Assembly (NCBI GenBank): GCA_035363255.1
Contig: DAOSES010000015.1
Coordinates: 1-58,933, forward strand
Direction: 5' to 3'
Length of the DNA: 58,933 nt
From: Caldisericia bacterium
GTDB taxonomy: Bacteria > Caldisericota > Caldisericia > UBA6126
In this document: in pieces, positions 9,184-58,662 of the stretch
Numbering within the stretch: position 1 is the first letter of the stretch
Layout: every line of letters starts with the position of its first letter
Notes under the pieces: model-generated
Databases searched by the model: none
Seen by the model: the letters and a program-made list of their open reading frames with translations, nothing else
What the model was told of the DNA's origin: nothing
Position numbers and translations under genes: made by a program

Positions 9184-9184
9184 T

Positions 9185-37348: not shown

Positions 37349-38184
37349 ACTCCATCAACCACCTTCGCATATCTGTCACCCAGCGATGCAATATTAAGTG
37401 TTTTTACTGTCATCATGAAGGTCAGGAACAGATTTCCAGAGAAATGACTCCTGATGAAATCTATGTTCGTGTAAAAGATATGGCTCAGTTGGGTATAGAA
37501 TATGTCAAAATCACCGGAGGAGAACCTTTGCTTCGGGTAGATATTATGGACATCATCGCTAAAATTCGATCTCTTCCTGAAATCAAAGAAATCAGCATGA
37601 CTACCAATGGTTTTTTACTAAAAGAGTTGGCTTGCAATCTTAAAAAAGCAGGCCTGGATCGCATCAACGTAGGTTGTGATGCTCTTTATTCCAATGAATT
37701 ACCAAAAAGTATGGATATCATTCTCCCAGGAATTCAACAAGCACTTTTAGCAGGTCTTCGACCCATTAAAGTTAATATGGTCGTACTAAAAGGGCTCAAT
37801 GACCATGAAATCCCCACCATGATCCAACATGCCTCCCAAGTAGGTTTTATTCTCCAGCTTATTGAATTGATACCCAATGGCAACCCTTCTTTTGATCAAT
37901 ACCATTTGTCTTTGGACAATATCGAAAAGGACTTGGAAAAACGAGCTGATAAAGTCATGGTGCGAAGTTTACAAGGAAGAAAACAATTCCATTTGGGAAA
38001 CGCTATAATTGAAATTGTGGGACCTACCCAATCAGGTTTTTGTGAGGCTTGCAAAAAAATCCGTATCACCTCGGACGGCATGATCAAACCTTGCCTCATG
38101 CGTTCTGACAATCTGATACCTTATACTGGGATAGAGTCTATCAAAAAAGCGTTGAAACTTAAATCTCCCTATCATCCTGCATAA
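37345..38184 (+). CDS. moaA: GTP 3',8-cyclase MoaA (short, archaeal-type radical SAM)
   Basis: CNIKCFYCHHEG radical-SAM cluster and the second-cluster Cys CEACKK...C. Confidence 0.85.
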   Translation: MNSINHLRISVTQRCNIKCFYCHHEGQEQISREMTPDEIYVRVKDMAQLGIEYVKITGGEPLLRVDIMDIIAKIRSLPEIKEISMTTNGFLLKELACNLKKAGLDRINVGCDALYSNELPKSMDIILPGIQQALLAGLRPIKVNMVVLKGLNDHEIPTMIQHASQVGFILQLIELIPNGNPSFDQYHLSLDNIEKDLEKRADKVMVRSLQGRKQFHLGNAIIEIVGPTQSGFCEACKKIRITSDGMIKPCLMRSDNLIPYTGIESIKKALKLKSPYHPA

Positions 38185-43179: not shown

Positions 43180-43207
43180 TTGTTAATAGCACTAAATACG
43201 TTAGAAT
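43180..43207 (+). promoter_or_regulatory. Candidate promoter TTGTTA-16-TAGAAT upstream of the hydrogenase regulatory/structural gene block
   Basis: Hexamers seen by eye. It is followed by a leader of about 60 nt containing a T8 run. Confidence 0.3.
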
Positions 43208-43270: not shown

Positions 43271-43636
43271 ATGACAGTTGACGAAATTATTGAAGCTGTA
43301 GGGGCTGAAATCCTTCAAGGTAAAGGAAGAACAGACCTAAACATTAATTACGCTTTTGCAGCAGATTTAATGAGTGATACTCTGTTTATTGTTGCTAGAG
43401 ACGATGAACCCATCTTGCTTATTACTGGTGTCACTAATCCATCGGTCGTTCGTACTGCAACAATTTTAGATATCCCCCTGGTGCTTATTGTTCGTGGTAA
43501 AAAGATCCCCCCTGAAACAATTCAGCTAGCTATTGACAACGAAATTATATTGCTTCTTACTTCAAAGATTATGTTCGATTCTTGTGGTTTACTATACGAA
43601 AGAGGCATGAAAGGTTGTCCATGGAGACTGAAGTGA
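43271..43636 (+). CDS. DRTGG-domain protein
   Basis: The pattern ...LMSDTLFIVARDDEPILLITGVTNPSVVRTA...IVRG resembles the DRTGG domain. Confidence 0.65.
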   Translation: MTVDEIIEAVGAEILQGKGRTDLNINYAFAADLMSDTLFIVARDDEPILLITGVTNPSVVRTATILDIPLVLIVRGKKIPPETIQLAIDNEIILLLTSKIMFDSCGLLYERGMKGCPWRLK

Positions 43637-44070
43637 TCAATAAACTTGATTTTTCTGTTGGAGCCTCAGATTACCCCAGCATTGGCTCAAGGGCTCTTGA
43701 AGTAAAAAAAAAGTTAAAAGATTTTTTTCCCACGGGCGATTATCTCAGACGCTTGGGGGTATGCATTTTTGAAGTTGAAGCTAACTTAGCCATACATACC
43801 AGCCAGGGTGGAACTCTTGAAATTATTGTTTTTAAAGATCGTGTTCGCATTATTGCATCCGATTCAGGTCCTGGTATAAAAGATCTTTCAAAGGCTCTCA
43901 CACCAGGTTTTTCCACTGCACCAGAGTCTGCCAGGCAACTTGGTTTTGGCGGAGGGGTTGGGATCAACAATGTGAAACGATTCGCTGATTACTTCTTCCT
44001 TACAAGCTCTAAGCAAGGTACAATTCTTTTATTTGAGGTGTGGAATGATGACGATAAAGCAGCTAACTGA
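43621..44070 (+). CDS. HATPase_c-family protein (anti-sigma-factor/Ser-Thr kinase-like, RsbW/SpoIIAB-type)
   Basis: N-box EANLAIHTSQGG and G-box DSGPGIKD...GFGGGVGI. Confidence 0.7.
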   Translation: METEVINKLDFSVGASDYPSIGSRALEVKKKLKDFFPTGDYLRRLGVCIFEVEANLAIHTSQGGTLEIIVFKDRVRIIASDSGPGIKDLSKALTPGFSTAPESARQLGFGGGVGINNVKRFADYFFLTSSKQGTILLFEVWNDDDKAAN

Positions 44071-44383
44071 ATCTTTACCCCTTAAAGTTCTCACTCCGAA
44101 TCTCAATCTTGAACAAACATTTGAGATGGTTTATTCTTCAGATTTATTGAGTCAGGTTCTTGCGAAAGCTACCTACCGTGATCTTTGGATCACTGTACAA
44201 ACCCATGCTACCATCCTCGGAATAGCTTCAATCAAACAAATTCCTTGCATCATTTTTTCTGAAGGACTTCTTCCTCAGCCAGAAGTAATCATGAAAGCAC
44301 AGGATGAAAATATAGTTTTGTTGTCAAGCCAACAAACAACTTTTGAATTAGCAGGTAAAATTTTTGTTTTATTAAATATATAG
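44045..44383 (+). CDS. Second DRTGG-like domain protein
   Basis: Similar size and pattern to 43271-43636. It overlaps the HATPase gene end. Confidence 0.55.
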   Translation: MMTIKQLTESLPLKVLTPNLNLEQTFEMVYSSDLLSQVLAKATYRDLWITVQTHATILGIASIKQIPCIIFSEGLLPQPEVIMKAQDENIVLLSSQQTTFELAGKIFVLLNI

Positions 44384-44394
44384 GTGGTGTTGAT

Positions 44395-44859
44395 ATGAGT
44401 GAGATTAATTATTCCCAAATTGACTTTGTGATCAAGCGCGAAGGATCTCAAGAGTCCTCTCTTATTCAGGTGCTAAATGGGACACAGGAAATTTTAGGAT
44501 TTCTCCCCAAAGAGGCTTTAGTTTATATTTCAGAAAAATTAAAAGTTCCCTTATCCCGAACTTATGGGATTGTCACTTTTTATAATTTTTTCAAAACTGA
44601 AAAAGATGCTGATCATGTCATAAGTATTTGCATGGGAACAGCCTGTTATGTCAAGGGTGCAAATGTTATTTTAAAAAAACTGGAAACTGAGTTAAATATT
44701 AAAAGTGGTCAAATCACTCCAGACAAGAAATTTTCAATTCGCGAAGTCCGATGCATTGGAGCATGCGGTATGGGTCCACTTATTTCAGTAGATGGAGTCG
44801 ATCTATATGGTCGAGTTCAAGTGGATATGATTCCCGAAATCCTGAACAAATACAGATGA
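44395..44859 (+). CDS. hydC: NuoE-like [2Fe-2S] hydrogenase subunit (HydC/HndA type)
   Basis: Thioredoxin-like 2Fe-2S motifs CMGTACYVKG and CIGACGMGP. Confidence 0.85.
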   Translation: MSEINYSQIDFVIKREGSQESSLIQVLNGTQEILGFLPKEALVYISEKLKVPLSRTYGIVTFYNFFKTEKDADHVISICMGTACYVKGANVILKKLETELNIKSGQITPDKKFSIREVRCIGACGMGPLISVDGVDLYGRVQVDMIPEILNKYR

Positions 44860-45404
44860 AAGAACTCTCCATGAACATTTTGGATATCTTGCACAATTCG
44901 GTGCATGCAAATCCAAAAAACATCTATCTCACAATCCTTGAAGATAGCTCAAAAGATCTACTTCAATTCACAGTCAAAGATGATGGTAAAGGTATGAGTC
45001 AGGAATATGCCTCCAAAGTTTTTGATCCTTTTACTACAAGCAGTTCTACCAAAAACGTAGGACTCGGATTGCCTTTTCTTAAGATTCAATGCGAAATGTG
45101 TAATGGATCTGCCCATTTGACAAGCAAAGAAGGCCTTGGTACAGAAGTTGAGTTCAGCTTTCAACTTTCTCATGTTGATCGCCCTCCCATGGGAGATTTG
45201 GCAGGTACTTTGACGATCATGTTCACTATGCACCATTACATTTCATTTCATTTCAAATATTGCAAAGACCATCAGTGTTTTGAGCTTAGTACTGATGAAC
45301 TTAAAAGTTTAATGCAAGATGTTCCTTTGCAACATCCAAAAGTTGCAAAAGGCATAGAAGACTATATTAATACAAATTTAACAGAATTACAGGGAGGTTA
45401 TTAA
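44856..45404 (+). CDS. HATPase_c-domain protein embedded in the hydrogenase operon
   Basis: NILDILHNSVHA...DDGKGM...GLGLPFLK. ATGA start/stop overlap with hydC. Confidence 0.7.
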   Translation: MKELSMNILDILHNSVHANPKNIYLTILEDSSKDLLQFTVKDDGKGMSQEYASKVFDPFTTSSSTKNVGLGLPFLKIQCEMCNGSAHLTSKEGLGTEVEFSFQLSHVDRPPMGDLAGTLTIMFTMHHYISFHFKYCKDHQCFELSTDELKSLMQDVPLQHPKVAKGIEDYINTNLTELQGGY

Positions 45405-45778
45405 TGGCAAAGATTAACTCATTGGAAGAACTCAGAAAACTTCGTGATCAGGCAAAAGAAACCATGACCGCACGAAGCGGAAGTGCAAAAGTTAAAATTT
45501 TTGCAAGCATGGGAACTGTTGGGATAGCAGGGGGAGCTCGTGAAGCTCTGAAAGCCATGATTGATGAGTTGGAAAAAAGAGACTTCCACGATGTTGAAAT
45601 TATTGAAAGCGGTTCCATGGGTTTGGATCGCGAAGAACCAGTCATTTCAGTCGAACGTGATGGATACATGACTACCTACGGTAGAGTTTCTCCCGATATG
45701 GCTCGTCAAATCGTTGCCCAGCACGTTATCAATGGACAAATTGTTAGCGAATGGGTGATTGCGAGGAACAAGAAATAA
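45404..45778 (+). CDS. Small HydD/HndB-like protein: thioredoxin-like ferredoxin fold with no cysteines
   Basis: It aligns to the N-terminal [2Fe-2S] domain of the following NuoF-like protein, with all four Cys positions replaced (ASMGTVGIAGGA, GSMGLDREEP). Confidence 0.6.
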   Translation: MAKINSLEELRKLRDQAKETMTARSGSAKVKIFASMGTVGIAGGAREALKAMIDELEKRDFHDVEIIESGSMGLDREEPVISVERDGYMTTYGRVSPDMARQIVAQHVINGQIVSEWVIARNKK

Positions 45779-47436
45779 TGAAAATATATCGGATTCATGC
45801 TCTAATATGCGCTGGTGGTCAATGCATCACTGCTGGCGGAGATAGTTTTGAGGAAGCATTAAAGCATGCTATTAAAGAAAAAGGGCTGGAAGACGAGATA
45901 CAAGTAGTGGAAACGGGCTGTATGGGAGCTTGTGAAAAGGGTCCCATGATGGTGGTATATCCTGAAGGAGTACTTTACATCCATCTTAAAGCGAGTGATG
46001 CGGAAGAAATTGTAAACGAGCATTTCTTAAAAGGACGTCCAATTCAGCGATTGATGTGGAAAGAAGCAGATGGAAACTTCCCCACTCTCGATCAGGTTCC
46101 ATTTTTTACTCACCAAACCAAAATTGTATTACGTAATTGCGGTCTAATTGATTCTGAAAGCATCGAAGAATATATTGCACAAGATGGTTATAGCGCTCTT
46201 GCAAAAGCTTTGTCCTCTATGACTCCTGCTGAAGTTGTCGATGAAATAAAAAAATCAGGTTTACGTGGTCGTGGAGGAGCTGGTTTTCCAACTGGAATCA
46301 AATGGGAATTAGCCTACAAACAAGATGATCCAGAAAAATATATCGTTACCAACGCTGATGAAGGTGACCCTGGAGCATATATGGATCGTTCATTGCTTGA
46401 AGGAGATCCGCATACTGTAATTGAAGGTATGGCTATTGCCGCTTATGCTATCGGAGCTTCTAAAGGATTTATTTATTGTCGCGCAGAATATCCAATTGCT
46501 ATTAAACGTCTTCAAATTGCCATTAAAAAGGCAAAACAGGCTGGTTTGTTAGGAAAAAATATCCTTGCATCTGATTTTTCCTTTGATCTTGAAATTCGAA
46601 TGGGTGCAGGAGCTTTTGTTTGTGGTGAAGAAACTGCTCTTCTCAATTCAATCGAAGGCAAGCGGGGAGAACCACGGAAAAAACCCCCTTATCCCGCCCA
46701 AAAAGGCTTATTTGGCAAACCTACTGTGATTAATAACGTTGAGACTTTTGCCAATGTCCCATTTATTATTTTGGAAGGGGCTGAGAAATTTCGCAGAATC
46801 GGTACTGAAACCAATCCTGGCACCAAAGTGTTTTCTCTTGCAGGAAAGGTTATCACTACTGGTTTGATAGAAGTACCCCTTGGGATTAGTCTTCGTAAAA
46901 TTATCTATGACATCGGTGGCGGCATCCCTGATGGCAAAAAATTCAAAGGTGCCCTTATGGGTGGACCCTCTGGTGGAGTTATACCTGCATCAAAATTGGA
47001 CACTCCCATCGATTATGAATCTTTAAATGAAATCGGCTCAATGATGGGTTCTGGTGGCTTGATTGTCATGGATGAAGACAGCTGTATGGTGGATATAGCC
47101 AAATTTTTCCTCAAATTTACCGTTGATGAAAGCTGTGGTAAATGCACTCCATGTCGCGAAGGTACACGTCAAATGCTCGAACTACTTGAGCAAATATCCT
47201 CAGGTAACGGAAAGATGTCCGATTTAGACAAACTTGAACGTCTTGCTGAGACCATTCGTATGACCTCGCTTTGTGGATTGGGTCAAAGCGCTCCTAATCC
47301 AGTTTTATCTACTATCCGATGGTTTAGAGATGAATACGAGGATCATATTAGAAATCATAAATGTACAGCCGATGTATGCAAAATGAAACCACACGATTTG
47401 GAGGTAAAGAAACGTGTCAAAAAAATCACTCATTGA
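45778..47436 (+). CDS. hydB: NuoF-like NADH-binding hydrogenase subunit HydB, with an N-terminal thioredoxin-like [2Fe-2S] domain
   Basis: CAGGQC...CMGAC, FMN/NADH motifs GLRGRGGAGFPTGIKW, N3 cluster ESCGKCTPCREG...C. There is no C-terminal 2x[4Fe-4S] domain. Confidence 0.85.
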   Translation: MKIYRIHALICAGGQCITAGGDSFEEALKHAIKEKGLEDEIQVVETGCMGACEKGPMMVVYPEGVLYIHLKASDAEEIVNEHFLKGRPIQRLMWKEADGNFPTLDQVPFFTHQTKIVLRNCGLIDSESIEEYIAQDGYSALAKALSSMTPAEVVDEIKKSGLRGRGGAGFPTGIKWELAYKQDDPEKYIVTNADEGDPGAYMDRSLLEGDPHTVIEGMAIAAYAIGASKGFIYCRAEYPIAIKRLQIAIKKAKQAGLLGKNILASDFSFDLEIRMGAGAFVCGEETALLNSIEGKRGEPRKKPPYPAQKGLFGKPTVINNVETFANVPFIILEGAEKFRRIGTETNPGTKVFSLAGKVITTGLIEVPLGISLRKIIYDIGGGIPDGKKFKGALMGGPSGGVIPASKLDTPIDYESLNEIGSMMGSGGLIVMDEDSCMVDIAKFFLKFTVDESCGKCTPCREGTRQMLELLEQISSGNGKMSDLDKLERLAETIRMTSLCGLGQSAPNPVLSTIRWFRDEYEDHIRNHKCTADVCKMKPHDLEVKKRVKKITH

Positions 47437-47842
47437 AAAGCTGCTTGACCTTCAGGATTCTCAAAAAAATACGAATCATCTCCCAAAAAAACAATTAGTT
47501 GAAATATCGAAAGAATGTCAAACTCCTCTTGCTGAAACTTATGGCGTTGCTACTTTTTATACCATGTTTTCAGTCGAACCCCGAGGAAGACATATCATTC
47601 GTATTTGCGAAAATCAGTCATGTCATATGGCTGAAGCACTTAGTGTAGTTGAATCACTTAAAAATCATCTCAATATTGAATTTGGAGAAACTACTGCCGA
47701 TGGCCTGTTTACCCTCGAGCATAGCAGTTGCCTTGGTATGTGTTCGATAGCTCCATGTATGATGATCGATGATCATCCCTACGGGAACCTTACACCCTCC
47801 AAAATTGTTGACATCATCAACAAAATTAAGGCAGGTGAATAA
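47414..47842 (+). CDS. Second NuoE-like [2Fe-2S] subunit
   Basis: CENQSCHMAE...CLGMCSIAPC. GTG start with GGAGG RBS. Confidence 0.8.
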   Translation: MSKKSLIEKLLDLQDSQKNTNHLPKKQLVEISKECQTPLAETYGVATFYTMFSVEPRGRHIIRICENQSCHMAEALSVVESLKNHLNIEFGETTADGLFTLEHSSCLGMCSIAPCMMIDDHPYGNLTPSKIVDIINKIKAGE

Positions 47843-47845
47843 TTT

Positions 47846-49516
47846 ATGAAGTTTTATAGAACACATGTATTGATTGCCAGTGATGCAAAAAGCCTGGTAC
47901 TTGGAGCAAAAAGCATTCAGGATTTGTTAATTTCTGCCTTAAAAAAATACAAACTGGAAGACGAAGTTAAGGTTATTCCAACGGGTAGCCTTGGTTTTGA
48001 AGAAACTGGTGTAGCCATCATGGTATATCCTGAAGGCATCATTTATGCACCTGTAAATCATCAAAATATTGAAGAAATTGTAGTCGAACACTTCCTCAAA
48101 GGCAGAGTTGTCAATAGTCTGAAAAAGCTACCAAAAATTTCCAACATCTCTGCTGGTTCCCTTGAAAATCAAGCAATTTTAGATGTGCAACAAAGAGTAG
48201 TCTTGGAAAATGTCGGTATTATCGATCCTGAAAACATCATGGAATACATAGCCAGAGAAGGCTATTCTGCAATTGAAAAAGCAATATTTAGCCTAAAACC
48301 AGAAAATGTGATTGAAGAACTTAAAATTTCTGAACTTCGTGGAAGAGGTGGTGCTGGCTTTCCCACAGGCTTAAAATGGGACTTTACGCGTAAAGCTATT
48401 GGAGACAAAAAATACGTTATTTGCAATGCAGATGAAGGCGAGCCTGGTACATTCAAAGATCGTGAAATCATGGAAGGAGACCCCCACAAACTCATTGAAG
48501 GGATGATGCTTGCTGGATACGCCACGGGAGCAGACTACGGATATATCTATATCCGCGGAGAGTATGCTTTATCCATAAAAAGACTTGAAAAAGCTATCGC
48601 AGATGCAAGAGAATACGGGCTTCTCGGTAAAAATATCTTAAATAGCCAGTTTAGCTTTGACTTGGAAGTTTATAAAGGCGCTGGAGCCTATGTTTGCGGG
48701 GAAGAAACCGCACTAATCGAATCAATTGAAGGCAAACGTGGCGAACCACGAAAAAAACCCCCTTACCCCCCTACCTCAGGTTTATGGGGAAAGCCTACAG
48801 TAGTCAACAACGTGGAAACTCTTGCAAATATCCCTTCCATCATAAGGAATGGTGGATTCTGGTACAAAGGGATTGGAGTTGAAGGTTCCCGCGGGACTAA
48901 GCTTTTCAGTCTAATGGGAGATTTAAAATGGAAAGGAGTGGTTGAAATTCCTTTTGGCACCCACCTTTCCAACATTATTAGCAATCTTGGCTTGGGAATA
49001 AGCAACGGCAAATCACTCAAAGGAGTCATCCTTGGAGGATCATCGGGCTTTTTAATCAAACCCGACGAGCTTGAAACTCCAGTAGATTTTCACTCCCTTG
49101 CTCAAATAGAAGCTGGTCCAGGCTCTGGATCTATTGTAGCAATGGATGAACATCGTTGTATCGTGGATATGATAAAAAATATTGCTCAATTTTTTGAGCA
49201 TGAAAGCTGTGGAAAATGCACACCATGTCGAAATGGCACGAATCAGATAGTAGCAATACTTGAACGTATCTCCTCAGGTGATGGCAAACTTGAAGACCTG
49301 CGTAATCTTGAAACACTTGGAAACACGATGGCTCAGGCTTCCTTCTGTCCTCTGGGGCAAACTGCTCCAAACATCATGATTCAAGCTATAAAAAAATACC
49401 GTAGTGAGTTTGAAGCTCATATCATCGATAAAAAATGTCCAGCTAATGTTTGCCGTTTCTATGAAGACACTTTAATAAAACAAAACAACAATCCAAGGGA
49501 GGTTGAAAATGAATGA
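47846..49516 (+). CDS. Second NuoF-like subunit, whose N-terminal thioredoxin-like domain lacks the Cys ligands
   Basis: ELRGRGGAGFPTGLKW and CGKCTPCRNG are conserved. The N-terminus reads LIASDAKSLVLGA / TGSLGFEETG where the paralog has CAGGQC / CMGAC. Confidence 0.8.
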   Translation: MKFYRTHVLIASDAKSLVLGAKSIQDLLISALKKYKLEDEVKVIPTGSLGFEETGVAIMVYPEGIIYAPVNHQNIEEIVVEHFLKGRVVNSLKKLPKISNISAGSLENQAILDVQQRVVLENVGIIDPENIMEYIAREGYSAIEKAIFSLKPENVIEELKISELRGRGGAGFPTGLKWDFTRKAIGDKKYVICNADEGEPGTFKDREIMEGDPHKLIEGMMLAGYATGADYGYIYIRGEYALSIKRLEKAIADAREYGLLGKNILNSQFSFDLEVYKGAGAYVCGEETALIESIEGKRGEPRKKPPYPPTSGLWGKPTVVNNVETLANIPSIIRNGGFWYKGIGVEGSRGTKLFSLMGDLKWKGVVEIPFGTHLSNIISNLGLGISNGKSLKGVILGGSSGFLIKPDELETPVDFHSLAQIEAGPGSGSIVAMDEHRCIVDMIKNIAQFFEHESCGKCTPCRNGTNQIVAILERISSGDGKLEDLRNLETLGNTMAQASFCPLGQTAPNIMIQAIKKYRSEFEAHIIDKKCPANVCRFYEDTLIKQNNNPREVENE

Positions 49517-51335
49517 TCAAACTGTCAATATAACCATTAATGGGAAACCATTTAGCGTAGCTGCTCATAGCACCATTCTTGAAGCTTGTGAAAAAGCTCA
49601 TATCCATGTGCCCACTTTGTGCTACCTTAAAGAGATTTGCGAAGAGGGCTCATGTGGAATCTGTGTAGTCGAAGTTGCAAAAGCAAGAACATTGCAAAGA
49701 GCTTGTATTACTGAAGTTTTTGAAGGTATGGAAATTAAAACACATACTCCCCGAGTGCTTGAAGCAAGAAAAACGGTAGCTGAACTTATTCTTGCAAATC
49801 ATCCTAAAGACTGTCTTTCCTGCGATGCAAATGAATCTTGTGATTTACGTCAACTCACTTACGATTTAGGTATTTCCGAAGTACATTTTGAAAAAACTCG
49901 TGAAAATGATTTTGAACTCGATCTCACATCTCCTTCGTTTAAACGTGACATGAATAAATGCATCCTTTGCAAACGTTGTGTTGAAGTTTGCGAAAAAGTT
50001 CAGTCGGTATCAGTTATTGACACTGCCGGACGAGGCATGAAAAATCGAATAGCAACTTTTATGGATCGTGGTATTGGTGAATCCTATTGTATTAATTGCG
50101 GTCAATGCGTTTTGGTTTGCCCCACTGGCGCTCTTATTGAACAAAGTGAAGTTGATCTCGTTTGGAAGGCTTTGGCAGATCCCAAAAAGATTATCCTGGT
50201 TGAAACAGCTCCAGCAGTGCGCGTTGCTATTGGTGAAGAATTTGGTCTTCCTGCTGGATCCCTGGTTACCAAACAAATGGTTGCTGGTCTTCGTCGATTA
50301 GGTTTCACGAAAGTATTTGATACCAATTTCTCTGCCGATTTAACCATTATGGAAGAAGGTTATGAGCTTATAGGTCGCATTAAAAAGGCACTAGGTCAAG
50401 ACAAAGGTGAATACCACGGTCCCACCAATCTTCCAATGATCACCTCTTGCTCTCCTGGTTGGATCAAATTTGCTGAACACTTTTTCCCTGGAGTTTTAGA
50501 TCATCTATCAACTTGCAAGTCACCTCAACAAATGTTTGGTGCTGTAGCAAAAACATACTACGCTGAAAAGTTAAAAGTTGATCCCAGAGATATTGTAGTC
50601 GTTTCTATCATGCCTTGTGTTGCAAAAAAATATGAAGCAAAACGCCCTGAAATGAATAGTGCTTTCCATTATTGGAAAAACAAACTTCATCTTACTGATG
50701 ATCAATCTTTCCAGGATGTTGACCATGTACTTACCACTCGTGAAGCTGCCCGTATGATGAAACAAGCAGGTATTTTCCTTCCAGATCTACCTAATGAAGA
50801 GTTTGATCAGCCTCTAGGTTCATCTACCGGTGCTGCTGTGATATTCGGTTCATCGGGCGGAGTTATGGAAGCTGCAATCCGTACTGCTTATGAAGTTATC
50901 ACAGAGTCTCCTCTGCCTAAGCTTGATTTCGAAGAAGTCCGTGGCTTGCAGGGCATTAAAAGCGCTACTATCGATATTCAAGGGCTGGGACTTAAGATTG
51001 CTGTTGCCAATGGCCTTGGAAATGCTCGAGTTCTTCTTGAACAAGTTGCCAAAGGCGAATCACCCTATCATTTCATCGAAGTAATGGCATGTCCAGGTGG
51101 TTGTATCGGTGGAGGTGGACAACCCTATCCCACTAATACCGAAGTAAGAGAAAAACGTATGAAAGCAATCTATTGTGAAGATTGTAATTTACCCATACGT
51201 AAATCCCACGAAAATCCATCTATTACTGACATTTACAAAGATTTTCTTGGACAGCCCAATGGTGAAAAATCCCACCATCTATTACATACCTCCTACACTC
51301 AACGCGACATCTACGAGCAAGAAAAAGAAAGATAA
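49509..51335 (+). CDS. hydA: [FeFe] hydrogenase catalytic subunit HydA (M3-type: 2Fe-2S + His-ligated 4Fe-4S + 2x4Fe-4S + H-domain + C-terminal SSU-like tail)
   Basis: L2 motif MPCVAKKYEA, L3 motif EVMACPGGCIGGGGQP, L1 reads TSCSPGW. N-terminal cluster motifs CYLKEICEEGSCGIC, HPKDCLSCDANESC, CILCKRCVEVC, CINCGQCVLVCP. RBS GGGAGG lies 8 nt before the ATG. Confidence 0.9.
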   Translation: MNDQTVNITINGKPFSVAAHSTILEACEKAHIHVPTLCYLKEICEEGSCGICVVEVAKARTLQRACITEVFEGMEIKTHTPRVLEARKTVAELILANHPKDCLSCDANESCDLRQLTYDLGISEVHFEKTRENDFELDLTSPSFKRDMNKCILCKRCVEVCEKVQSVSVIDTAGRGMKNRIATFMDRGIGESYCINCGQCVLVCPTGALIEQSEVDLVWKALADPKKIILVETAPAVRVAIGEEFGLPAGSLVTKQMVAGLRRLGFTKVFDTNFSADLTIMEEGYELIGRIKKALGQDKGEYHGPTNLPMITSCSPGWIKFAEHFFPGVLDHLSTCKSPQQMFGAVAKTYYAEKLKVDPRDIVVVSIMPCVAKKYEAKRPEMNSAFHYWKNKLHLTDDQSFQDVDHVLTTREAARMMKQAGIFLPDLPNEEFDQPLGSSTGAAVIFGSSGGVMEAAIRTAYEVITESPLPKLDFEEVRGLQGIKSATIDIQGLGLKIAVANGLGNARVLLEQVAKGESPYHFIEVMACPGGCIGGGGQPYPTNTEVREKRMKAIYCEDCNLPIRKSHENPSITDIYKDFLGQPNGEKSHHLLHTSYTQRDIYEQEKER

Positions 51336-51348: not shown

Positions 51349-51381
51349 GAGGCAAGGGCTTTTGCCCTTGCCTCTTTTTTT
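51349..51381 (+). terminator. Rho-independent terminator after hydA
   Basis: GAGGCAAGGGC-tttt-GCCCTTGCCTC followed by T7. An A-run upstream makes bidirectional function possible. Confidence 0.8.
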
Positions 51382-51460: not shown

Positions 51461-52300
51461 ATGGAAGACAACTTTTTAAACGCTCAAGGGATTACCAAGT
51501 TTTTATCTGAAGAATCGGGCGTACAAAAAGCAAGGCTTGATTTAAAATCGCTCCTCATTCTTGGTTTTATGGCCGGAGCATTTATTTCTTTCGGAGGCAT
51601 GATCTCGGTAGTAGTTCTTACTGATAGCTCTTTTTTTATTGGTAAAGCCTTGAGTAAAATTCTAGCAGGAATGTTTTTCAGTATGGGCTTGTTGCTCGTT
51701 TTATTAAGCAATGCAGAACTTTTTACTGGTAACAGTCTTATGCTTATATCTTTATTCAACAAAAAAATTACTTTTATCAGACTCTTAAGAAATTGGTTCT
51801 TTGTCTATTTGGCAAATTTTCTTGGTTCAATGTGCCTTGCTATTTTATTGTTTTACTCAGGTATTTGGAAAAACGATCAATACCTCTATGCACAAACCAT
51901 CCATTCTATCGCACTAAAAAAAGTCAGTTTGCCTATTATTGAAGCTTTTTTTCGAGGTGTTTTATGTAATTGGCTGGTTTGTCTCGCGATATGGATGAGT
52001 TTTTCTTCCAAAGCCATTGTCAATAAATTTTTTGCTATTCTTTTACCCATAACAAGCTTTATTGCATTGAGTTTTGAGCATAGTGTGGCAAATATGTTTA
52101 TATTACCTTTTGCTTATTTGACTCAAACATCTCTTTCAACTATCTCAATTCCAACAACAACTATTCCAAGCATGATTGAGCTCAATTGGACAACTATTCT
52201 CAGTAACAATTTACTACCAGTTTCATTGGGAAACATTGTTGGCGGAGTTTTCTTTGTATCATTCATTTTTTGGCTTGCTTATTGCCATCAAAAGCTGTAA
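51461..52300 (+). CDS. focA: Formate/nitrite transporter family channel (FocA-like)
   Basis: FNT hallmark FSMGLLLVLLSNAELFTGN and six TM segments. Confidence 0.8.
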   Translation: MEDNFLNAQGITKFLSEESGVQKARLDLKSLLILGFMAGAFISFGGMISVVVLTDSSFFIGKALSKILAGMFFSMGLLLVLLSNAELFTGNSLMLISLFNKKITFIRLLRNWFFVYLANFLGSMCLAILLFYSGIWKNDQYLYAQTIHSIALKKVSLPIIEAFFRGVLCNWLVCLAIWMSFSSKAIVNKFFAILLPITSFIALSFEHSVANMFILPFAYLTQTSLSTISIPTTTIPSMIELNWTTILSNNLLPVSLGNIVGGVFFVSFIFWLAYCHQKL

Positions 52301-52320
52301 CATGAAAGAAAGAAGAATAT

Positions 52321-52758
52321 ATGCCAATTACCAACATTAGCCAAAAACATCCACAACTTCGTACCGCAATAGCTGAAGGAAGCATCCTACTTTCAGCCCA
52401 TACCATGCATCTCATCTTAGACAAGCAAATCCCCAAGGGTGATCCATTGCAAATCGCTGAAGCTGCAGCCCTATTAGCCATCAAACAAACACCCTATCTG
52501 ATTCCACATTGTCACCCCATTCCCATACATGGGGCGGAAGTTTTTTTTAGACTCTCCGATTCTACTCTTACATGCAGTGTTAAAGTTATTTCTTTTGGAG
52601 TCACAGGTATCGAAATCGAAGCCATCACAGGAGTAAGTATTGCACTTTGCACTATATGGGATTGTGTAAAATATCTTGAAAAAAATGAACATGGAGAGTA
52701 CCCAAACACTATGATTCAATCAATCAAAGTAATACAAAAAGAAAAAAAAGATGTCTAA
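52321..52758 (+). CDS. moaC: Cyclic pyranopterin monophosphate synthase MoaC
   Basis: HMHLILDKQIPKGDPLQIAEAAALLAIKQT...GVTGIEIEAITGVSIAL. Confidence 0.9.
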   Translation: MPITNISQKHPQLRTAIAEGSILLSAHTMHLILDKQIPKGDPLQIAEAAALLAIKQTPYLIPHCHPIPIHGAEVFFRLSDSTLTCSVKVISFGVTGIEIEAITGVSIALCTIWDCVKYLEKNEHGEYPNTMIQSIKVIQKEKKDV

Positions 52759-53974
52759 ATCAGGTTTTCATCAACTTCACTCTTTGAAAGAGGCTTTGGA
52801 AATACTCTATAGTATATCTACTCCAGTTCAAGAAACTGAGTTCAGTCTTGATCAAGCATTAAACAAAATCTGTAGCAGAGATATAAACGCTCCTATTGCT
52901 GTGCCTTCTTTTTCAAAATCAGCTATGGATGGTTATGCAGTTTTATCCTCTGACACTTACTATGCCAGTCCTACTAGACCAATCGCTCTTGAGCTGATTG
53001 GGGAGATACTTCCAGGCGAAGACACAAAGCAAGTGATTTCTACGGGACAATGCATTGAAATAGCTACTGGTGCCAAAGTTCCTGAAGGAGCAGATGGTAT
53101 TGTAATGGTTGAACATACTGAAAAAGAAGGCACTCAAGTGAAAGTTTTCAGTTCAACGGCCCCTGGTCACCATATTATCCAAGCTGGATCGGATATCTCA
53201 AAAAACCAGTTAGTAGTAAAAAAAGGTACCAGACTCACTGCAAGGCATACTTCTCTCTTGTCAGGGCTTGGCATGGAGAAAATTCATTGCTTCCAAGGCC
53301 TTGTTGTCGCTGTAGCCTCTACTGGCAACGAAATAGTACGACCTCCCAATCCGCTTGCTTCAGCTCAATCATATGATATTAATGCTAGAGCCCTAATTGA
53401 TTCTATTAGGGAATATGGCTGTGTCGCCAAAGATTTTGGTGTAATCGTGGATGAGGCTAAAGAAATTGAAAAAACCATTCTTGAGATGGTCAAACAAGCT
53501 GATATTGTAGTTATTAGCGGTGGGTCTTCGCTGGGTACAAAAGATTTAATACTCGAGCAGATTAACAAAATAGGACAAGTCTTAGTGCATGGAATTGCAG
53601 TTAAGCCAGGCAAACCAACTCTAATAGGTAAAATTCAAGATAAACTAATCTTAGGCCTCCCTGGTCATCCCGCTTCTGCATTGTCCAATTTTTTCATTCT
53701 GATAAAGCCATATCTGGATTTTTTGTTTCAAGTTCATACCTCGATTACTCCGTTTATAGATGCTCGATTAACTTGTAAAATTGCCTCTACTATTGGAAGG
53801 TTTGAATTTATCCCTGTACAAGTTCAAGAATGCGACTCTGAATTCTTGGCGCTTCCTCAACTAAAAGGTTCGAGTGCAATTTCTCCGATGATGAATAGTG
53901 ATGGTTATATCAAGATTAACGAAAACATAGAAGTTTTGGATAAAAATACCTTGGTTCGAGTTTTTTTGTTTTAA
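52751..53974 (+). CDS. moeA: Molybdopterin molybdenumtransferase MoeA
   Basis: FSKSAMDGYAV...ISGGSSLGTKD...GLPGHPASAL. Confidence 0.85.
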   Translation: MSKSGFHQLHSLKEALEILYSISTPVQETEFSLDQALNKICSRDINAPIAVPSFSKSAMDGYAVLSSDTYYASPTRPIALELIGEILPGEDTKQVISTGQCIEIATGAKVPEGADGIVMVEHTEKEGTQVKVFSSTAPGHHIIQAGSDISKNQLVVKKGTRLTARHTSLLSGLGMEKIHCFQGLVVAVASTGNEIVRPPNPLASAQSYDINARALIDSIREYGCVAKDFGVIVDEAKEIEKTILEMVKQADIVVISGGSSLGTKDLILEQINKIGQVLVHGIAVKPGKPTLIGKIQDKLILGLPGHPASALSNFFILIKPYLDFLFQVHTSITPFIDARLTCKIASTIGRFEFIPVQVQECDSEFLALPQLKGSSAISPMMNSDGYIKINENIEVLDKNTLVRVFLF

Positions 53975-54465
53975 TGAAGAAGTACTTGTTAGGCATTCTT
54001 GTTATATCAGACAGCTCTTTTAATAAAACTCGAATTAGCACTACTCAAGACCTTATCATTGATCATCTTCATGACTTGTTTGATATATCGGTTGTTAAAA
54101 TTATACCCGACCATCCACTTGAAATTGAAACTACCTTGTCTGAATGGGCTGACAATCTCCATCTCGATTTAATACTCAGCACAGGTGGAACTGGAGCAAG
54201 TCCAAGGGATTTTACGCCAGAAGCAAGCATGAAGATATTTGATAAAGAGATACCCGGTATTTCTGAGTACTTAAGAATAAAAACAATCGAAAAAACTCCC
54301 TACGCTTGTTTATCCAGAGGAAAATCAGGTAGTCGCAAGCAAACCTTGATTATAAATCTTCCGGGTAGCTCTAAAGCAGTGAAAGAGTATCTTGAACTTC
54401 TCCAACCCATCCTTGGTCATGCCATAGATATCATTCAAGGGAAAGTAAATCGTTGTGGAGGGTAA
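53974..54465 (+). CDS. mogA: Molybdopterin adenylyltransferase MogA/MoaB
   Basis: LILSTGGTGASPRDFTPEA. Confidence 0.8.
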   Translation: MKKYLLGILVISDSSFNKTRISTTQDLIIDHLHDLFDISVVKIIPDHPLEIETTLSEWADNLHLDLILSTGGTGASPRDFTPEASMKIFDKEIPGISEYLRIKTIEKTPYACLSRGKSGSRKQTLIINLPGSSKAVKEYLELLQPILGHAIDIIQGKVNRCGG

Positions 54466-54468
54466 GGT

Positions 54469-54717
54469 ATGAATAATATACATGTTCTTCTCTTTGCGGG
54501 TATTCGTGAAGGCATTGGTCTTGACAAGCTAATTTTGAGCTATCCTCAAGGTATTACTTTGGGTCAACTCATCCAGGATATGGAAACAACATATCCTCAT
54601 CTTTTGCGCTTGTTCAGATCTTGTCAATTCATTGTTAATTGTCAGGAAATCCAAGTGGATTATATCCTACAGGATAATGATGAGGTTGCAATTCTTCCTC
54701 CCTTGGGAGGGGGTTAA
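54469..54717 (+). CDS. moaD: Molybdopterin synthase sulfur-carrier subunit MoaD
   Basis: 82-aa ubiquitin-like protein ending in GG (…LPPLGGG). Confidence 0.7.
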   Translation: MNNIHVLLFAGIREGIGLDKLILSYPQGITLGQLIQDMETTYPHLLRLFRSCQFIVNCQEIQVDYILQDNDEVAILPPLGGG

Positions 54718-54723
54718 AGATTT

Positions 54724-55131
54724 ATGCTCAAGCTTCAAAAAGATCCTCTTGATCTTCAGGAATACTTTAAAAGCATCAATGCAAGCATTGGGGCTTGTTT
54801 ATTTTTTGCAGGCATCGTCAGAAATGCTCCGGAAGATCAACAAGTTCAAGGGATCGAATATCATGCTTATGACAAGTTATGCTTTCACAAAGAAAAGCAT
54901 TTTGAGCAGAATTTCAAGTCTCTTTTTCCTGACAAATCTTATCATATCGTTCACCGTTTGGGTTATGTGCCAGTCAAAGAAACTTCCTTAATAGTTACGC
55001 TATTCTCACCTCATCGCAAAAAGTCATTTTCTTCTCTTGAGTTTATCGTCGAATGGATCAAATCGGATCTTCCAGTGTGGAAAAAAATCATTCATTGTGA
55101 TGGCAGTAGTCATTGGAAAGCCAACTTTTAA
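54724..55131 (+). CDS. moaE: Molybdopterin synthase catalytic subunit MoaE
   Basis: Size and position after moaD, with a pattern resembling the MoaE family (GIVRN...HRLGYVPV). Confidence 0.8.
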   Translation: MLKLQKDPLDLQEYFKSINASIGACLFFAGIVRNAPEDQQVQGIEYHAYDKLCFHKEKHFEQNFKSLFPDKSYHIVHRLGYVPVKETSLIVTLFSPHRKKSFSSLEFIVEWIKSDLPVWKKIIHCDGSSHWKANF

Positions 55132-55132
55132 C

Positions 55133-55894
55133 ATGAATAACTCTGATCCTTTATTTCGATATGAACGCCAACTTTGGATGAAATCAATATCTCTCGAGGG
55201 TCAAAAAAAAATAGCTCAAACCTCAGTTTTAGTGGTTGGAGCTGGAGGTTTAGGTTCACCCATTTTATTCTATTTAGCTGCTGCTGGGATAGGTAAAATA
55301 GGAATTATGGATGACGACCAAATCACTTCAAGCAATCTAAATCGACAAATACTATACACTACCAAAGATCTAGGTTTAAAAAAAAGCTCAACTGCAAAAC
55401 AACGCATTCAAGATCTCAATCCCTCCATCCGCGTTGAAGACTATTCTGAACGTTTAGATCAGCATAATGCCCAAAACATCATTTCAAAATATTCTTTACT
55501 TATTGATGCTAGCGATAATTATCCCACCAGATATCTGATCAACGATACCAGTGTTTTATTGAGGATTCCACTCTTCTTTGCAGCGGTATCTGCTTGGTCA
55601 GGAATTTTCTTCGCACGAATACCCCATCGTAATCAAGCATGTTTTCGTTGTTGTTATCCTGTTCCTTTGCCAGAAGCAGAATCCCAGGATGAAAAACATG
55701 CTGGGATCATTGGTGCTACTGCTGGCTTTCTTGGTTCTTTGCTTTGCACTCAAATCATCCAGTATATTACTCAGGACACCTTTGCATATGAAGGTAAAAT
55801 GTTATGGGTTGACCTTGAAAAAGCCAGGTTTTTCACCTATCCTTGCACTCTTAAAGAAACTTGTTTGTGTCATTCACTTGAAAAAGCATCATGA
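55133..55894 (+). CDS. moeB: MoeB/ThiF-family adenylyltransferase (MoaD-activating E1-like)
   Basis: VLVVGAGGLGSPILFYLAAAGIGKIGIMDDD and a C-terminal CxxC...C motif. Start taken at the ATG 2 nt after the moaE stop. Confidence 0.8.
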   Translation: MNNSDPLFRYERQLWMKSISLEGQKKIAQTSVLVVGAGGLGSPILFYLAAAGIGKIGIMDDDQITSSNLNRQILYTTKDLGLKKSSTAKQRIQDLNPSIRVEDYSERLDQHNAQNIISKYSLLIDASDNYPTRYLINDTSVLLRIPLFFAAVSAWSGIFFARIPHRNQACFRCCYPVPLPEAESQDEKHAGIIGATAGFLGSLLCTQIIQYITQDTFAYEGKMLWVDLEKARFFTYPCTLKETCLCHSLEKAS

Positions 55895-56838: not shown

Positions 56839-58662
56839 TTACGTCATTTTTGAAGTACAAGACTGATTTATTTTATCATACATCTCCATGATGATGTTTG
56901 CGATATCTTCTTTACACTTTATTGTTGTGTTTAATAAATGAAAATCAGAACGTTGTCTCAACCAACTTAACTGACGCTTTGCATATCTACGTGTGTTTTG
57001 ATTCATCATCTCTATTGCTTCTTTTAATGGTACTTTTTCTTGCTTTGCATTAATCAACTCACGGTACCCATGAGCCTTAATTCTCTCGATAGAGGAAACA
57101 TAGTTGTGTTGAATCAACCAATCAATTTCGTTCAACAAACCTTTGCTTAGCATGCCTTCAGTGCGCAGATGTATGCGTTGATATAATTGTTCCAAGTTTT
57201 GTATCAAACCAATTTTGATGTAAAAATAGGGCAAAGCTGTGCTTTCTTTTTTTTGCAGGTCGCTCATTTTCTTTTTACTTAAAATAATTACCTCAAGAGC
57301 TCTTATGATCCTTTTTTCATCGTTTGGATGGATCTTCTGTGCGATTTCTGGATCCAAAAGAGCTAGCTCTTGATGGAGCTGCAGCAAACTTTCTTTTTTG
57401 ACTCTTTCTCTAAGTTGATTTCTTAGCAAAGGATCTGAAGTATTTTCTTGATCAAACAAACCATCAATGATTGAGCTTAAATATAGATTACTACCTCCAG
57501 CTAAAATGGGGAAACTACCACGATTCAAGATATCTTTTATGGCTTTTATTGCATCTTTACGAAATGACGCAACCGAGTACTCATCTTTTGGGTCAACGTA
57601 ATCCACAAGATGATACATGGGATAGCTTTTGCATTCAGGTTTAGCAGTACCTATGGTTAAATGCTGGTAGATTTGCATGGAATCAACATTGATAATCTCA
57701 GCATTTCTTGTTTGAGCAATTATCTCGGCTATGGAAGATTTACCAATCGAAGTAGGTCCATATATAACTAGCAATGGAAAAGAATCTGGAGTAGTTTTAT
57801 CTCTAACTTTCACTATTCTTCGTACCGTCTCATCGATTATATAGGTGGGTGATGAAGTTCCAGAAAGAATAGCGATGCTTTTCGCTTTTTCGAGTGCGCT
57901 TGATAATGCTTCACTAAAAGGATGCTTTTCGTCGCTTTGAATAAGGAAAGTATTGGAGTTACATGGTTTAGCAAGTTCAAACAAACTATAGGTGTTTGAG
58001 CTTTTTGCGTCACCAACCACAAAAACACAATCACTTATTTTTGCAAACTCAAGAGCATCATTCTGGCGTTTAATGACTGTGGGGCAAATAGTTTCATATA
58101 TGTTTAGTTGATCAAGATTTAGCGATTGAAGATAGTTTTTGATTTGATGGAACACTATACTGCTTGCGGTAGTCTGGGAAAGAAAGGCAATATTCCCCTT
58201 TGGAAGTTCGAAATGGTGAACTTGCTCTAAGTTTTCAACAATAGTCACTTTGGAAGAATCAATATAGCTTACTGCGCCAACGATTTCTGGATGGTTTTTT
58301 TTTCCCAGGAGCAGTATGCATTGGTGGTTTTTAGCAACATTCATAAGGAGTTTTCTAAGTTTTATGACTACAGGACAAGTACGATCAATAATATCAGAGG
58401 TTATTTTCTTCAGTTGTTCTTCTGATTCTTTTGTGATCCCGTGAGCAGGAATAATGACTCTTGTATCGCAAGAAATTTCTTCAAGTGAATACACTGTTCT
58501 GACGCCATTTAGTGCCAATTCGTTTTGAACACGTTCGTTGTGAATCAGTTTTCCAAAAATTACTACTTCTTTGCCTGGTTCGATGCTTGATACGGTAGAC
58601 CAAATTGCATTTCTAACCCCTTCGCACAAACCAATATGCTCATAACAAGTTATTTTATCCAT
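56839..58662 (-). CDS. ispH-miaA: Bifunctional fusion: 4-hydroxy-3-methylbut-2-enyl diphosphate reductase (IspH/LytB) N-terminal half + tRNA dimethylallyltransferase (MiaA) C-terminal half
   Basis: The IspH half carries the three cluster Cys (GLCEGV, TCPVV, ICPTV) plus HN, SQTT and GTSSP motifs over about residues 1-285. The MiaA half has the P-loop GPTSIGKSS and VDSMQIYQHLTIGTAKP over about residues 295-607. Confidence 0.85.
   Translation of the reverse strand: MDKITCYEHIGLCEGVRNAIWSTVSSIEPGKEVVIFGKLIHNERVQNELALNGVRTVYSLEEISCDTRVIIPAHGITKESEEQLKKITSDIIDRTCPVVIKLRKLLMNVAKNHQCILLLGKKNHPEIVGAVSYIDSSKVTIVENLEQVHHFELPKGNIAFLSQTTASSIVFHQIKNYLQSLNLDQLNIYETICPTVIKRQNDALEFAKISDCVFVVGDAKSSNTYSLFELAKPCNSNTFLIQSDEKHPFSEALSSALEKAKSIAILSGTSSPTYIIDETVRRIVKVRDKTTPDSFPLLVIYGPTSIGKSSIAEIIAQTRNAEIINVDSMQIYQHLTIGTAKPECKSYPMYHLVDYVDPKDEYSVASFRKDAIKAIKDILNRGSFPILAGGSNLYLSSIIDGLFDQENTSDPLLRNQLRERVKKESLLQLHQELALLDPEIAQKIHPNDEKRIIRALEVIILSKKKMSDLQKKESTALPYFYIKIGLIQNLEQLYQRIHLRTEGMLSKGLLNEIDWLIQHNYVSSIERIKAHGYRELINAKQEKVPLKEAIEMMNQNTRRYAKRQLSWLRQRSDFHLLNTTIKCKEDIANIIMEMYDKINQSCTSKMT

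Follow-up and report, generated by a model that had tools for sequence, protein, structure and literature searches.

NADH disposal as H2 or formate sets thermodynamic limits for fermentation and syntrophy in anaerobes. Hyd1ABC of Syntrophomonas wolfei and HydAB of Syntrophus aciditrophicus are non-bifurcating, NADH-dependent [FeFe] hydrogenases (Losey et al., 2017, 2020; PMC7311640), with a NuoF-like β subunit that carries no extra Fe-S domains. The bifurcating HydABC(D) enzymes, i.e., those of Thermotoga maritima (Protein Data Bank [PDB] entry 7P5H), Acetobacterium woodii (7Q4V) and Thermoanaerobacter kivui (8A6T), belong to the Bfu family, which needs five clusters in BfuB, non-bifurcating homologs being without clusters B2-B5 (Schut et al., 2022); clusters B3/B4 have been linked to ferredoxin interaction in a paper on Hydrogenedentota. 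Residue criteria separating bifurcating (BF) from non-bifurcating (non-BF) β subunits have been published (Losey et al., 2020; PMC7311640), and bifurcation is currently read from a single HydB. Here we describe an operon at 43271-51335 (+ strand) of a 58.9-kb stretch of DNA from a Caldisericia bacterium (contig DAOSES010000015.1; the whole stretch is referred to below as the window). It belongs to a recurrent operon type that pairs a BF-clade with a non-BF flavoprotein before one catalytic gene. A literature search for two NuoEF pairs in one hydrogenase (hyd) or formate dehydrogenase (fdh) operon found no description, with many subscription journals outside its coverage.

The operon consists of ten co-directional, mostly overlapping open reading frames (ORFs), termed D1, K1, D2, E1, K2, T, F1, E2, F2 and HydA in order of position. 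From its sequence it is best described as the HydA-bearing Caldisericia member of a family in which a double flavoprotein cassette is joined to an exchangeable NuoG-type catalytic subunit, a type with members among Caldisericota, Cryosericota, Atribacteria and other lineages. Three parts make up the operon, i.e., a putative regulator trio (D1/K1/D2), the double flavoprotein cassette (E1-K2-T-F1-E2-F2) and the exchangeable NuoG-type catalytic gene. The first half of the cassette reads as a BF-clade HydC/HydD/HydB set with an inserted gene for a histidine-kinase-type ATPase, and the second half as a non-BF NuoE/NuoF pair. An earlier note on this DNA had read the locus as that of a multisubunit, NADH-type [FeFe] hydrogenase in which the NuoE/NuoF-like pair occurs twice, and Pfam and NCBIfam searches of the ORFs bear this out; its domains and gene order also stand, but it had counted eleven genes where we find ten ORFs.

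The catalytic subunit and two dissimilar flavoprotein pairs

HydA (49509-51335, + strand; 608 aa) is a group-A [FeFe] hydrogenase catalytic subunit with a NuoG-like N-terminus. It matches the NCBIfam model NF040763 (FeFe_hydrog_A6, "NADH-dependent [FeFe] hydrogenase, group A6") with 864 bits against a cutoff of 765, and TIGR02512 with 513 against 406, and it contains the Pfam domains Fe_hyd_lg_C, Fe_hyd_SSU, Fer2_4 and NADH-G_4Fe-4S_3. Its assignment to group A rests on the H-domain, the above-cutoff family score and three H-cluster motifs (TSCSPGW, MPCVAKKYE and MACPGGCIGGGGQP). The first of these (L1; window 50442-50462, HydA residues ~312-318) has Ser at the second Cys position of the textbook TSCCPxW. 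A defect in HydA was considered on this account and ruled out, since 87 of 95 related HydAs share the variant and the solved structure of HydA1 (7Q4V_A) has it too, i.e., it is a trait of the clade. Among the large ORFs elsewhere in the window there was no formate dehydrogenase (FDH) or other NuoG-type gene.

The two flavoprotein pairs upstream of HydA differ from each other. E1 (44395-44859, + strand) is a HydC/HoxE/NuoE-like [2Fe-2S] subunit and the partner of F1 (2Fe-2S_thioredx, E = 1e-42), with Cys at 79, 84, 120 and 124, and is placed as in Clostridial E1-K2-T-F1-A operons. E2 (47414-47842, + strand), the NuoE-like [2Fe-2S] partner of F2, matches the same family (E = 6e-44). F1 (45778-47436, + strand; 552 aa) combines Complex1_51K and NADH_4Fe-4S with an N-terminal 2Fe-2S thioredoxin-like domain, and F2 (47846-49516, + strand; 556 aa) has Complex1_51K and NADH_4Fe-4S. 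The earlier note had the pair duplicated in tandem, which does not hold: F1 and F2 are only 51% and E1 and E2 34% identical, and the two F proteins fall into BF-type and non-BF-type clades. The pairs are instead, as judged from these comparisons, old paralogs from different HydB clades.

The published residue criteria separate F1 from F2 at every site. The BF signature is A/E..M, F and GGPSG, and the non-BF signature is T/S at 232, K/S/A at 234, Y at 367 and no GGPSG. F1 has A..M at the NADH site, F at the FMN site and GGPSG in the SLBB motif, and is of the BF type; F2 has T..K, Y and GGSSG at the same places (signature stretches NADEGEPGTFKDR, GAGAYVCGEE and GGSSG). F2 also has neither N-terminal Cys ligands nor a C-terminal domain, and is of the non-BF type. 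The BF residues are present in F1 and not in F2, so that the locus mixes both types. Like the β subunits of S. wolfei Hyd1ABC and S. aciditrophicus HydAB, F2 is NuoF-like without extra Fe-S domains and shows all three diagnostic patterns. It differs from them in that F2 retains a Cys-less N-terminal thioredoxin-like domain and that the operon adds a BF-clade HydC/HydD/HydB set and four regulator-like genes.

The operon also shares features with bifurcating enzymes. HydA has HydA1 of A. woodii (7Q4V_A, 626 bits) as its best PDB match and F1 has the corresponding HydB (7Q4V_B, 771 bits), the order E1-K2-T-F1 is that of the common Clostridial operon, and F1 carries the BF signature. However, the alignment of F1 with 7Q4V_B stops at residue 540 of 599, and that of F2 with its best PDB match (7T2R_B, HydB of Acetomicrobium mobile) ends early in the same way; the F proteins also match FDH β subunits in the PDB. 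In an alignment of 95 HydB-like proteins, the tails past the conserved CxxxxC were 18 residues in F1 and 20 in F2, with zero Cys, whereas the canonical HydB tail has 60-61 residues with 8 Cys, or is an extension of ~480 residues. Both NuoF-like proteins are thus without a C-terminal ferredoxin domain, as the earlier note had observed, and it was also right that the N-domain of the second is degenerate: ligands C11, C16, C48 and C52 of F1 are replaced by A/S/S/E in F2. The FMN, NADH and N3-cluster motifs are intact in both. Neither protein has the five clusters of BfuB, including the C-terminal 2x[4Fe-4S]. Compared with Bfu enzymes, F1 is without this domain, T is without its conserved Cys, and a non-Bfu pair is inserted before hydA; the first two of these differences leave the defining six-cluster BfuBC core incomplete.

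In neighbor-joining trees, all HydBs with a BF signature formed one clade with bootstrap 100 and F1 inside it, and short-tailed HydBs with a non-BF signature, F2 included, lay outside. Monophyly of the F2 proteins of loci with both pairs had support of less than 40 in these trees. Among 179 HydB-like sequences, 97 had a BF signature with a ferredoxin tail, 49 a BF signature with the long extension and 24 a non-BF signature with a short tail, and a BF signature without a tail was found only in Caldisericia F1 proteins and two others. We conclude from these alignments and trees that F1 is a BF-clade HydB that has lost its C-terminal 2x[4Fe-4S] domain and retained its N-terminal [2Fe-2S] domain. 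Caldisericia represent a lineage in which a bifurcating HydB shed its ferredoxin-side clusters.

NADPH specificity of one of the two modules was also considered. The Glu of the motif CGEETAL discriminates against NADPH, and the motif is kept in both F1 and F2; the idea was set aside. The ~480-residue C-terminal extension of HydB occurs in many Omnitrophota, Bacteroidales, Spirochaetes and Atribacteria (loci L004-L006, L017-L032 and L165; genes of ~1030-1060 aa). In L165 it is of the GltD/DPD type, and HydB forms with such a long C-terminal extension are mentioned in the Hydrogenedentota paper.

T (45404-45778, + strand; 124 aa) is a thioredoxin-like protein in the HydD/HndB position, with no Pfam match above the gathering score. 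It contains no Cys. Three Cys (at positions 39, 71 and 75 of the window protein) are kept in 40 of 42 T homologs, including those beside non-bifurcating HydB, and V/S/D at these positions was seen among the 42 only in the window and in a diverged Caldisericota relative (L033). The T orthologs of Caldisericum exile and of a locus labeled Elusimicrobia (L164) are also Cys-less. None of the Caldisericia T proteins examined has a Cys, and it is in this lineage, too, that the C-terminal clusters of F1 were lost.

All ten genes are intact in L033, with 62-93% amino acid identity and nonsynonymous divergence (dN) well below a saturated synonymous divergence (dS), and purifying selection acts on all ten. 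T is the most conserved gene of the operon in this comparison (93% identity, dN 0.039); dN is 0.11 for F1 and 0.15, with dS saturated, for F2, and D1 is 72% identical.

Exchange of the catalytic gene

Relatives with the double cassette were collected by protein search and contig look-ups, which gave the closest ones; in metagenomes there are at least those described here, and their taxon labels are taken from the record titles of metagenome-assembled genomes (MAGs). The genomes nearest to the window are Caldisericota MAGs, and F2 orthologs carry Caldisericum or Caldisericaceae names in NCBI. Among Caldisericia loci the last gene is HydA in the window, in L033 (ten genes ordered as in the window), in L169 (nine genes plus HydA) and in L164, where a Rex gene precedes the nine genes and an SDR-like gene, HydA and maturases follow them. 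In the remaining Caldisericia loci the last gene is FdhA. These are the cultured C. exile (AP012051; L163), with the cassette followed by FdhA (904 aa), a formate/nitrite transporter (FNT) family gene, MobA and FdhD, and with D1 and a K1-D2 fusion divergent upstream; L168 (Caldisericaceae), arranged as in C. exile; and L167 (GCA_021372585), with nine genes plus FdhA, syntenic with the window.

In loci from outside Caldisericia, the 8-Cys tail is complete in the first F protein, and the second F protein is of the non-BF type in every case. In Cryosericum (L009/L010) the same ten gene types occur as E1 T F1 HydA E2 F2 D1 K1 D2 K2, with a K1-CBS fusion and with PHP and Rex genes, and in Atribacteria (L165) the order is E1 K2 T F1 (1029 aa) E2 F2 HydA. 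A locus of unassigned source (L031) has D1 K1 A' D2 E1 K2 T F1 E2 F HydA, in which A' is a small HydA-like gene. Among metagenome loci, L094 has the cassette with HydA, L098 the cassette with an FdhA of 916 aa, and L083 the cassette with no NuoG-type gene adjoining.

The flanks of L167 are those of the window, i.e., pyrD-pyrF-pyrE-thyX upstream and FNT plus an IspH-MiaA fusion downstream. Identity between the nine accessory proteins of L167 and those of the window is 51-85% (T 85%, F1 75%, F2 71%), and the cassette of the window is about as similar to those of the FdhA loci as to that of the HydA locus L169. We conclude that in Caldisericia the catalytic gene was exchanged in situ between hydrogenase and formate dehydrogenase, the nine accessory genes being retained. 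A domain swap that kept the NuoG-like N-terminus was rejected: the FdhA N-termini are 43-52% identical to that of the window HydA (43% in L167), no closer than HydAs of other phyla, which argues that the whole catalytic gene was replaced. The locus is not specific to a hydrogenase, since in C. exile, and in L167 at the syntenic site, these nine genes stand upstream of a formate dehydrogenase instead. The HydA/FdhA exchange represents a natural experiment on the modularity of NuoG-type subunits and on the choice of H2 or formate as electron sink, and the FdhA version is directly accessible, C. exile being cultured.

The non-BF pair also stands alone with a catalytic gene, i.e., in L012 (HydA with a fused NuoE-NuoF, then Rex), in L045 and L053 (order T-E2-F2-HydA), and in L166 (E2-F2-FdhA, whose F protein shares 69% identity with the F2 core of the window). 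These arrangements support E2-F2 plus a catalytic subunit as a working unit; the fused NuoE-NuoF of L012 is the form found in S. aciditrophicus HydB. As in FdsABG (6TG9, 6VW7) and in "FdhA associated with HydBC," the sister loci place FdhA, with its NuoG-like N-terminus and Mo-bisPGD domain, directly after E2-F2. Unlike FdsABG, the window has HydA rather than FdhA, and neither the dual cassette nor the regulator genes belong to FdsABG. NiFe-HydABCSL of A. mobile (7T2R) resembles the window operon in having hisK and hydD genes, and its HydB is the best PDB match of F2; it differs in its NiFe catalytic module, its single complete BfuBC core and its experimentally shown bifurcation.

An FNT-family transporter gene and a full molybdenum-cofactor (Moco) gene set flank the window operon (51461-55894 and 36668-38184), with mobB and moaA upstream and moaC, moeA, mog/moaB, moaD, moaE and a moeB-like gene downstream. 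No molybdoenzyme gene was found in the window. L167 carries FdhA-FNT-MobA at the equivalent place, and the HydA/FdhA exchange at the site explains why FNT and Moco genes surround a hydrogenase operon; they look like remnants of an FDH setting or genes that accompany one.

Several loci showed further features. The SDR/epimerase-like gene of L164 (Elusimicrobia ADurb.Bin231) lies between F2 and hydA at 11590-12525; apart from this gene, L164 and the window are colinear, most genes being 57-69% identical (D2 and K2 only ~42-44%), and the Elusimicrobia label may for that reason be a binning error. In L012, a high-GC Caldisericota MAG (2689-10906), and in L010 (17067-21671), the genes after those of the hydrogenase encode a Rex-type repressor and a molybdoenzyme of the xanthine dehydrogenase family (FAD, 2Fe-2S and MoCoBD subunits). 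At L146 (5052-9339), a NuoE/NuoF pair precedes a 686-aa protein with Fer2_4, Fer4_20 and Pyr_redox_2 domains, similar to the Stn/Nfn-Bfu type; a separate HydABC set, whose HydB has 1044 aa, follows immediately downstream.

Function of the double cassette

We hold with about even confidence that the operon encodes an NADH-linked hydrogenase that works without ferredoxin and whose redox cassette could serve either catalytic subunit, HydA or FdhA. E2-F2-HydA would be a ferredoxin-independent, NADH-linked, reversible hydrogenase like S. wolfei Hyd1ABC, with electrons passing from NADH to the FMN of F2, then through the N3-type [4Fe-4S] cluster to the HydA clusters and the H-cluster. E1-T-F1 would be a second NADH-oxidizing module and would bind other HydA protomers at an N-terminus of the same NuoG-like kind. 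In Cryosericum, Atribacteria, L031, L083, L094 and L098, E1-T-F1 keeps all Bfu clusters and would add a ferredoxin-coupled (confurcating) route, and the cassette would allow NADH disposal through a single catalytic subunit whether or not ferredoxin takes part. In Caldisericia bifurcation was probably lost, because F1 has lost the two C-terminal [4Fe-4S] clusters and T its conserved Cys, and both modules would be NADH-only. The protomers of the T. maritima HydABC dimer are wired via the A4 cluster of HydA, which links two FMN sites (Furlan, 2022), so that alternating or mixed occupancy of HydA protomers is structurally conceivable.

Several observations weigh against this proposal. Known NuoG-like subunits take one NuoEF module each, and coupled expression at 1:1 would leave half of the modules without HydA, a mismatch that would be removed if HydA were in excess or the modules alternated. 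The window HydA falls in a clade of bootstrap 100 with HydAs neighboring BF-type HydB (Cryosericum, Omnitrophota, Bacteroidales) and does not group with HydAs placed after non-bifurcating HydB, which makes it ambiguous which module is HydA's own partner; all our trees were neighbor-joining only, with deep nodes unresolved. The L083 cassette has no adjacent NuoG-type gene, and its partner is possibly encoded elsewhere. Finally, the strong constraint on the truncated F1 and the Cys-less T is unexplained if these proteins are merely redundant.

The same gene order could instead encode two separate enzymes. E2-F2-HydA would then be a complete trimeric non-bifurcating hydrogenase, and E1-K2-T-F1 either the remnant of an upstream tandem hyd operon minus its hydA or a module serving a partner elsewhere, as in the BfuA-less "type 4." Complete tandem operons do exist, i.e., F1-A-E-F-A in L038 and L047 and E2-F2-A ... 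T-F1-A-E1 in L159, BfuBC cores without an adjacent BfuA have been described (Schut et al., 2022), and the isolated L083 cassette would fit. We nevertheless regard this as unlikely, given that the F1/E2 junction is conserved and overlapping in Caldisericia, the order E1-(K2)-T-F1-E2-F2-X (where X is the catalytic gene) recurs in Atribacteria, L031, L094 and L098, the whole cassette stays together across the swap of the catalytic gene, and the window has no second NuoG-like gene. The conservation of cassette order over distant lineages and two kinds of catalytic subunit is also what one would expect of a single obligate hetero-complex, the reading of the earlier note, in which both pairs and possibly T are stoichiometric with HydA, e.g., as HydA2(E1F1)(E2F2) joined via A4. 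Start/stop overlaps throughout the operon and the connection of two FMN sites through A4 in T. maritima Hyd(ABC)2 agree with it. However, two NADH sites in one complex bring no evident thermodynamic gain, and in Cryosericum hydA stands between the two pairs. The argument from overlapping genes to subunit status is further weakened by a related operon, that of NiFe-HydABCSL, whose hisK and hydD were outside the purified holoenzyme (Schut et al., 2022). An obligate hetero-complex thus seems to us unlikely.

That the operon encodes a canonical bifurcating HydABC(D) with a recent, decaying tandem duplicate of hydC/hydB is hardly credible. The BF-clade residues of F1 and the lost N-domain ligands of F2 would suit it, but the distance between the pairs and their different clades do not, and F1 is without the 8-Cys domain that defines a bifurcating BfuB. 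Nor does F2 look like a decaying gene, since it keeps all FMN, NADH and N3 motifs, has a low dN against a saturated dS, and has orthologs 64-89% identical across Caldisericia. A more elaborate form of the shared-cassette proposal would place BF-type and non-BF-type modules on neighboring HydA or FdhA protomers connected via A4, with the DRTGG and GHKL-ATPase proteins switching electron flow according to adenylate or redox state. We consider such a mixed complex unlikely; if it were true, the operon would encode one machine, indifferent to its catalytic subunit, that alternates between a ferredoxin-coupled and an NADH-only mode of making H2 or formate.

Regulator-like genes and operon boundaries

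D1 (43271-43636, + strand; 121 aa) is a stand-alone DRTGG-fold protein. Its Pfam DRTGG score of 18.2 bits is below the gathering score, and 18 of 23 members of its family match DRTGG (best E = 6e-8). An AlphaFold2 model (pLDDT 89) has the DRTGG protein 2IOJ as its top Foldseek match (TM 0.77) and also matches the CBS-DRTGG structures 3L2B and 3L31. D2 (44045-44383, + strand; 112 aa), a DRTGG/HprK-N-like paralog of D1 (26% identical, E = 9e-11), scores 29.9 bits with Hpr_kinase_N, above the gathering score, and 21.8 bits with DRTGG. The earlier note had named two DRTGG proteins; structure prediction and Foldseek confirm the fold for D1 only, and the profile scores of both lie below the DRTGG gathering score.

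K1 (43621-44070, + strand; 149 aa) is a SpoIIAB/RsbW-like GHKL ATPase and putative Ser kinase. It matches HATPase_c (30.7 bits) and HATPase_c_2, its N, G1 and G2 boxes are conserved in 18 homologs, and its matches to SpoIIAB are weak (TIGR01925 spIIAB, 32 bits against a cutoff of 135; PDB anti-sigma F factor 1TID, E = 3e-4). K2 (44856-45404, + strand; 182 aa), the "hisK" of HydABC operons, has a histidine-kinase-type catalytic and ATP-binding (CA) domain (HATPase_c, E = 8e-15; YycG CA domain 3SL2, E = 2e-6); a Pfam search found no HisKA/DHp domain, so that K2 does not qualify as a two-component sensor kinase. Of the two proteins that the earlier note called RsbW-like, the name accordingly suits only K1, which is SpoIIAB-like; K2 is closer to the CA domain of histidine kinases. 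A metal or redox site formed by the four Cys of K2 was ruled out, as these are not conserved in 31 homologs. A partner-switching module of the RsbW/RsbV or SpoIIAB/SpoIIAA kind, as suggested in the earlier note, would include a STAS antagonist and a sigma-factor target; no STAS or sigma-factor domain was found among the ten genes, the rest of the window not having been scanned exhaustively.

Operons in which a group D (M2e) hydrogenase accompanies a kinase are described from Clostridia and Thermoanaerobacter (Calusinska, 2010, as cited in Carere, 2012, PMC3561251; TamHydS, PMC8163306). These putative sensory hydrogenases stand upstream of trimeric bifurcating hydrogenases, beside the kinase, and their signaling route is unknown (PMC3561251, PMC8163306). 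In a set of 80 genome loci anchored on HydA, Clostridia commonly had the order D1-K1-(small HydA-like gene)-D2-E1-K2-T-F1-HydA. The small gene encodes Fe_hyd_lg_C, two Fer4 domains and PF04060 (e.g., in L082), and fits group D/M2e. The window shares with such operons (L034, L048, L058, L068, L070, L073, L077 and L082) the D1-K1-...-D2 genes upstream and K2 between hydC and hydD; unlike them, it has no HydS-like gene between K1 and D2, which overlap by 26 nt. The PHP-domain gene of the Cryosericum loci is not in the window operon either. The earlier note could not assign the kinase and DRTGG genes to a characterized system, and they are indeed widespread but uncharacterized companions of HydABC operons. 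They are not, however, a peculiarity of this locus, D1-K1-(HydS)-D2 and K2 being common in Clostridial HydABC operons and noted in the literature.

The sister loci bear on what these proteins might do. D1/K1/D2/K2 are probably not H2 sensors, because they also occur beside FdhA and the Clostridial-type sensory hydrogenase is absent here; the D1-K1-D2 trio, which accompanies FDH in C. exile, cannot be H2-specific. The FdhA-associated trio is evidence that the kinase and DRTGG genes of hyd operons belong to the NADH side. Most likely, the action of D1/K1/D2/K2 is post-translational and directed at the flavoprotein side, where they would sense the nucleotide or the redox state. Fusions of K1 occur with a CBS pair, in Cryosericum (L010 14426-15406) and L094 (5568-6728, - strand), and with D2, in C. 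exile (277 aa; L163 4859-5692, - strand). They link the GHKL ATPase to modules that bind nucleotides and to DRTGG modules.

The ten genes look like one transcription unit, bounded by a 99-nt gap with a weak promoter-like site before D1 and a hairpin with a T-run after hydA. The promoter-like site (43180-43207, + strand; TTGTTA-16-TAGAAT, 9 of 12 consensus matches) lies in the thyX-D1 gap; a consensus scan found no enrichment of such sites in the region compared with shuffles, so that it is weak evidence. The intrinsic terminator (51349-51381, no strand assigned) is an 11-bp perfect G+C-rich hairpin, GAGGCAAGGGC-TTTT-GCCCTTGCCTC, flanked by an A-run and a T-run. It begins 14 nt past the hydA stop, before the FNT gene, and marks the 3' end of the operon; it was read directly from the sequence, an automated scan having placed the hairpin on the minus strand. 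No match to a Rex operator was found near the upstream side of the operon, and two matches elsewhere are at chance level. The junctions, as read from the sequence, comprise overlaps of 16, 26, 4 (ATGA), 1 (TAATG), 1 (TAATG), 23 and 8 nt and gaps of 11 and 3 nt. The start of E2, which overlaps the end of F1 by 23 nt, is a GTG preceded at 8 nt by GGAGG. Public contigs of identical sequence (ENA ERZ27257396, JGI 3300009707) have concordant gene calls, and base composition is uniform over the whole window.

Two genes elsewhere in the window are of separate interest. One (33625-36567, - strand) encodes an M16C peptidase of 980 aa with M16C_assoc and PreP_C domains, a presequence-protease-like architecture in a bacterial genome. 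The other (56839-58662, - strand) encodes the IspH/LytB-MiaA (IPP transferase) fusion, of 607 aa, which is 45% identical in L167 and lies there on the same side of the operon.

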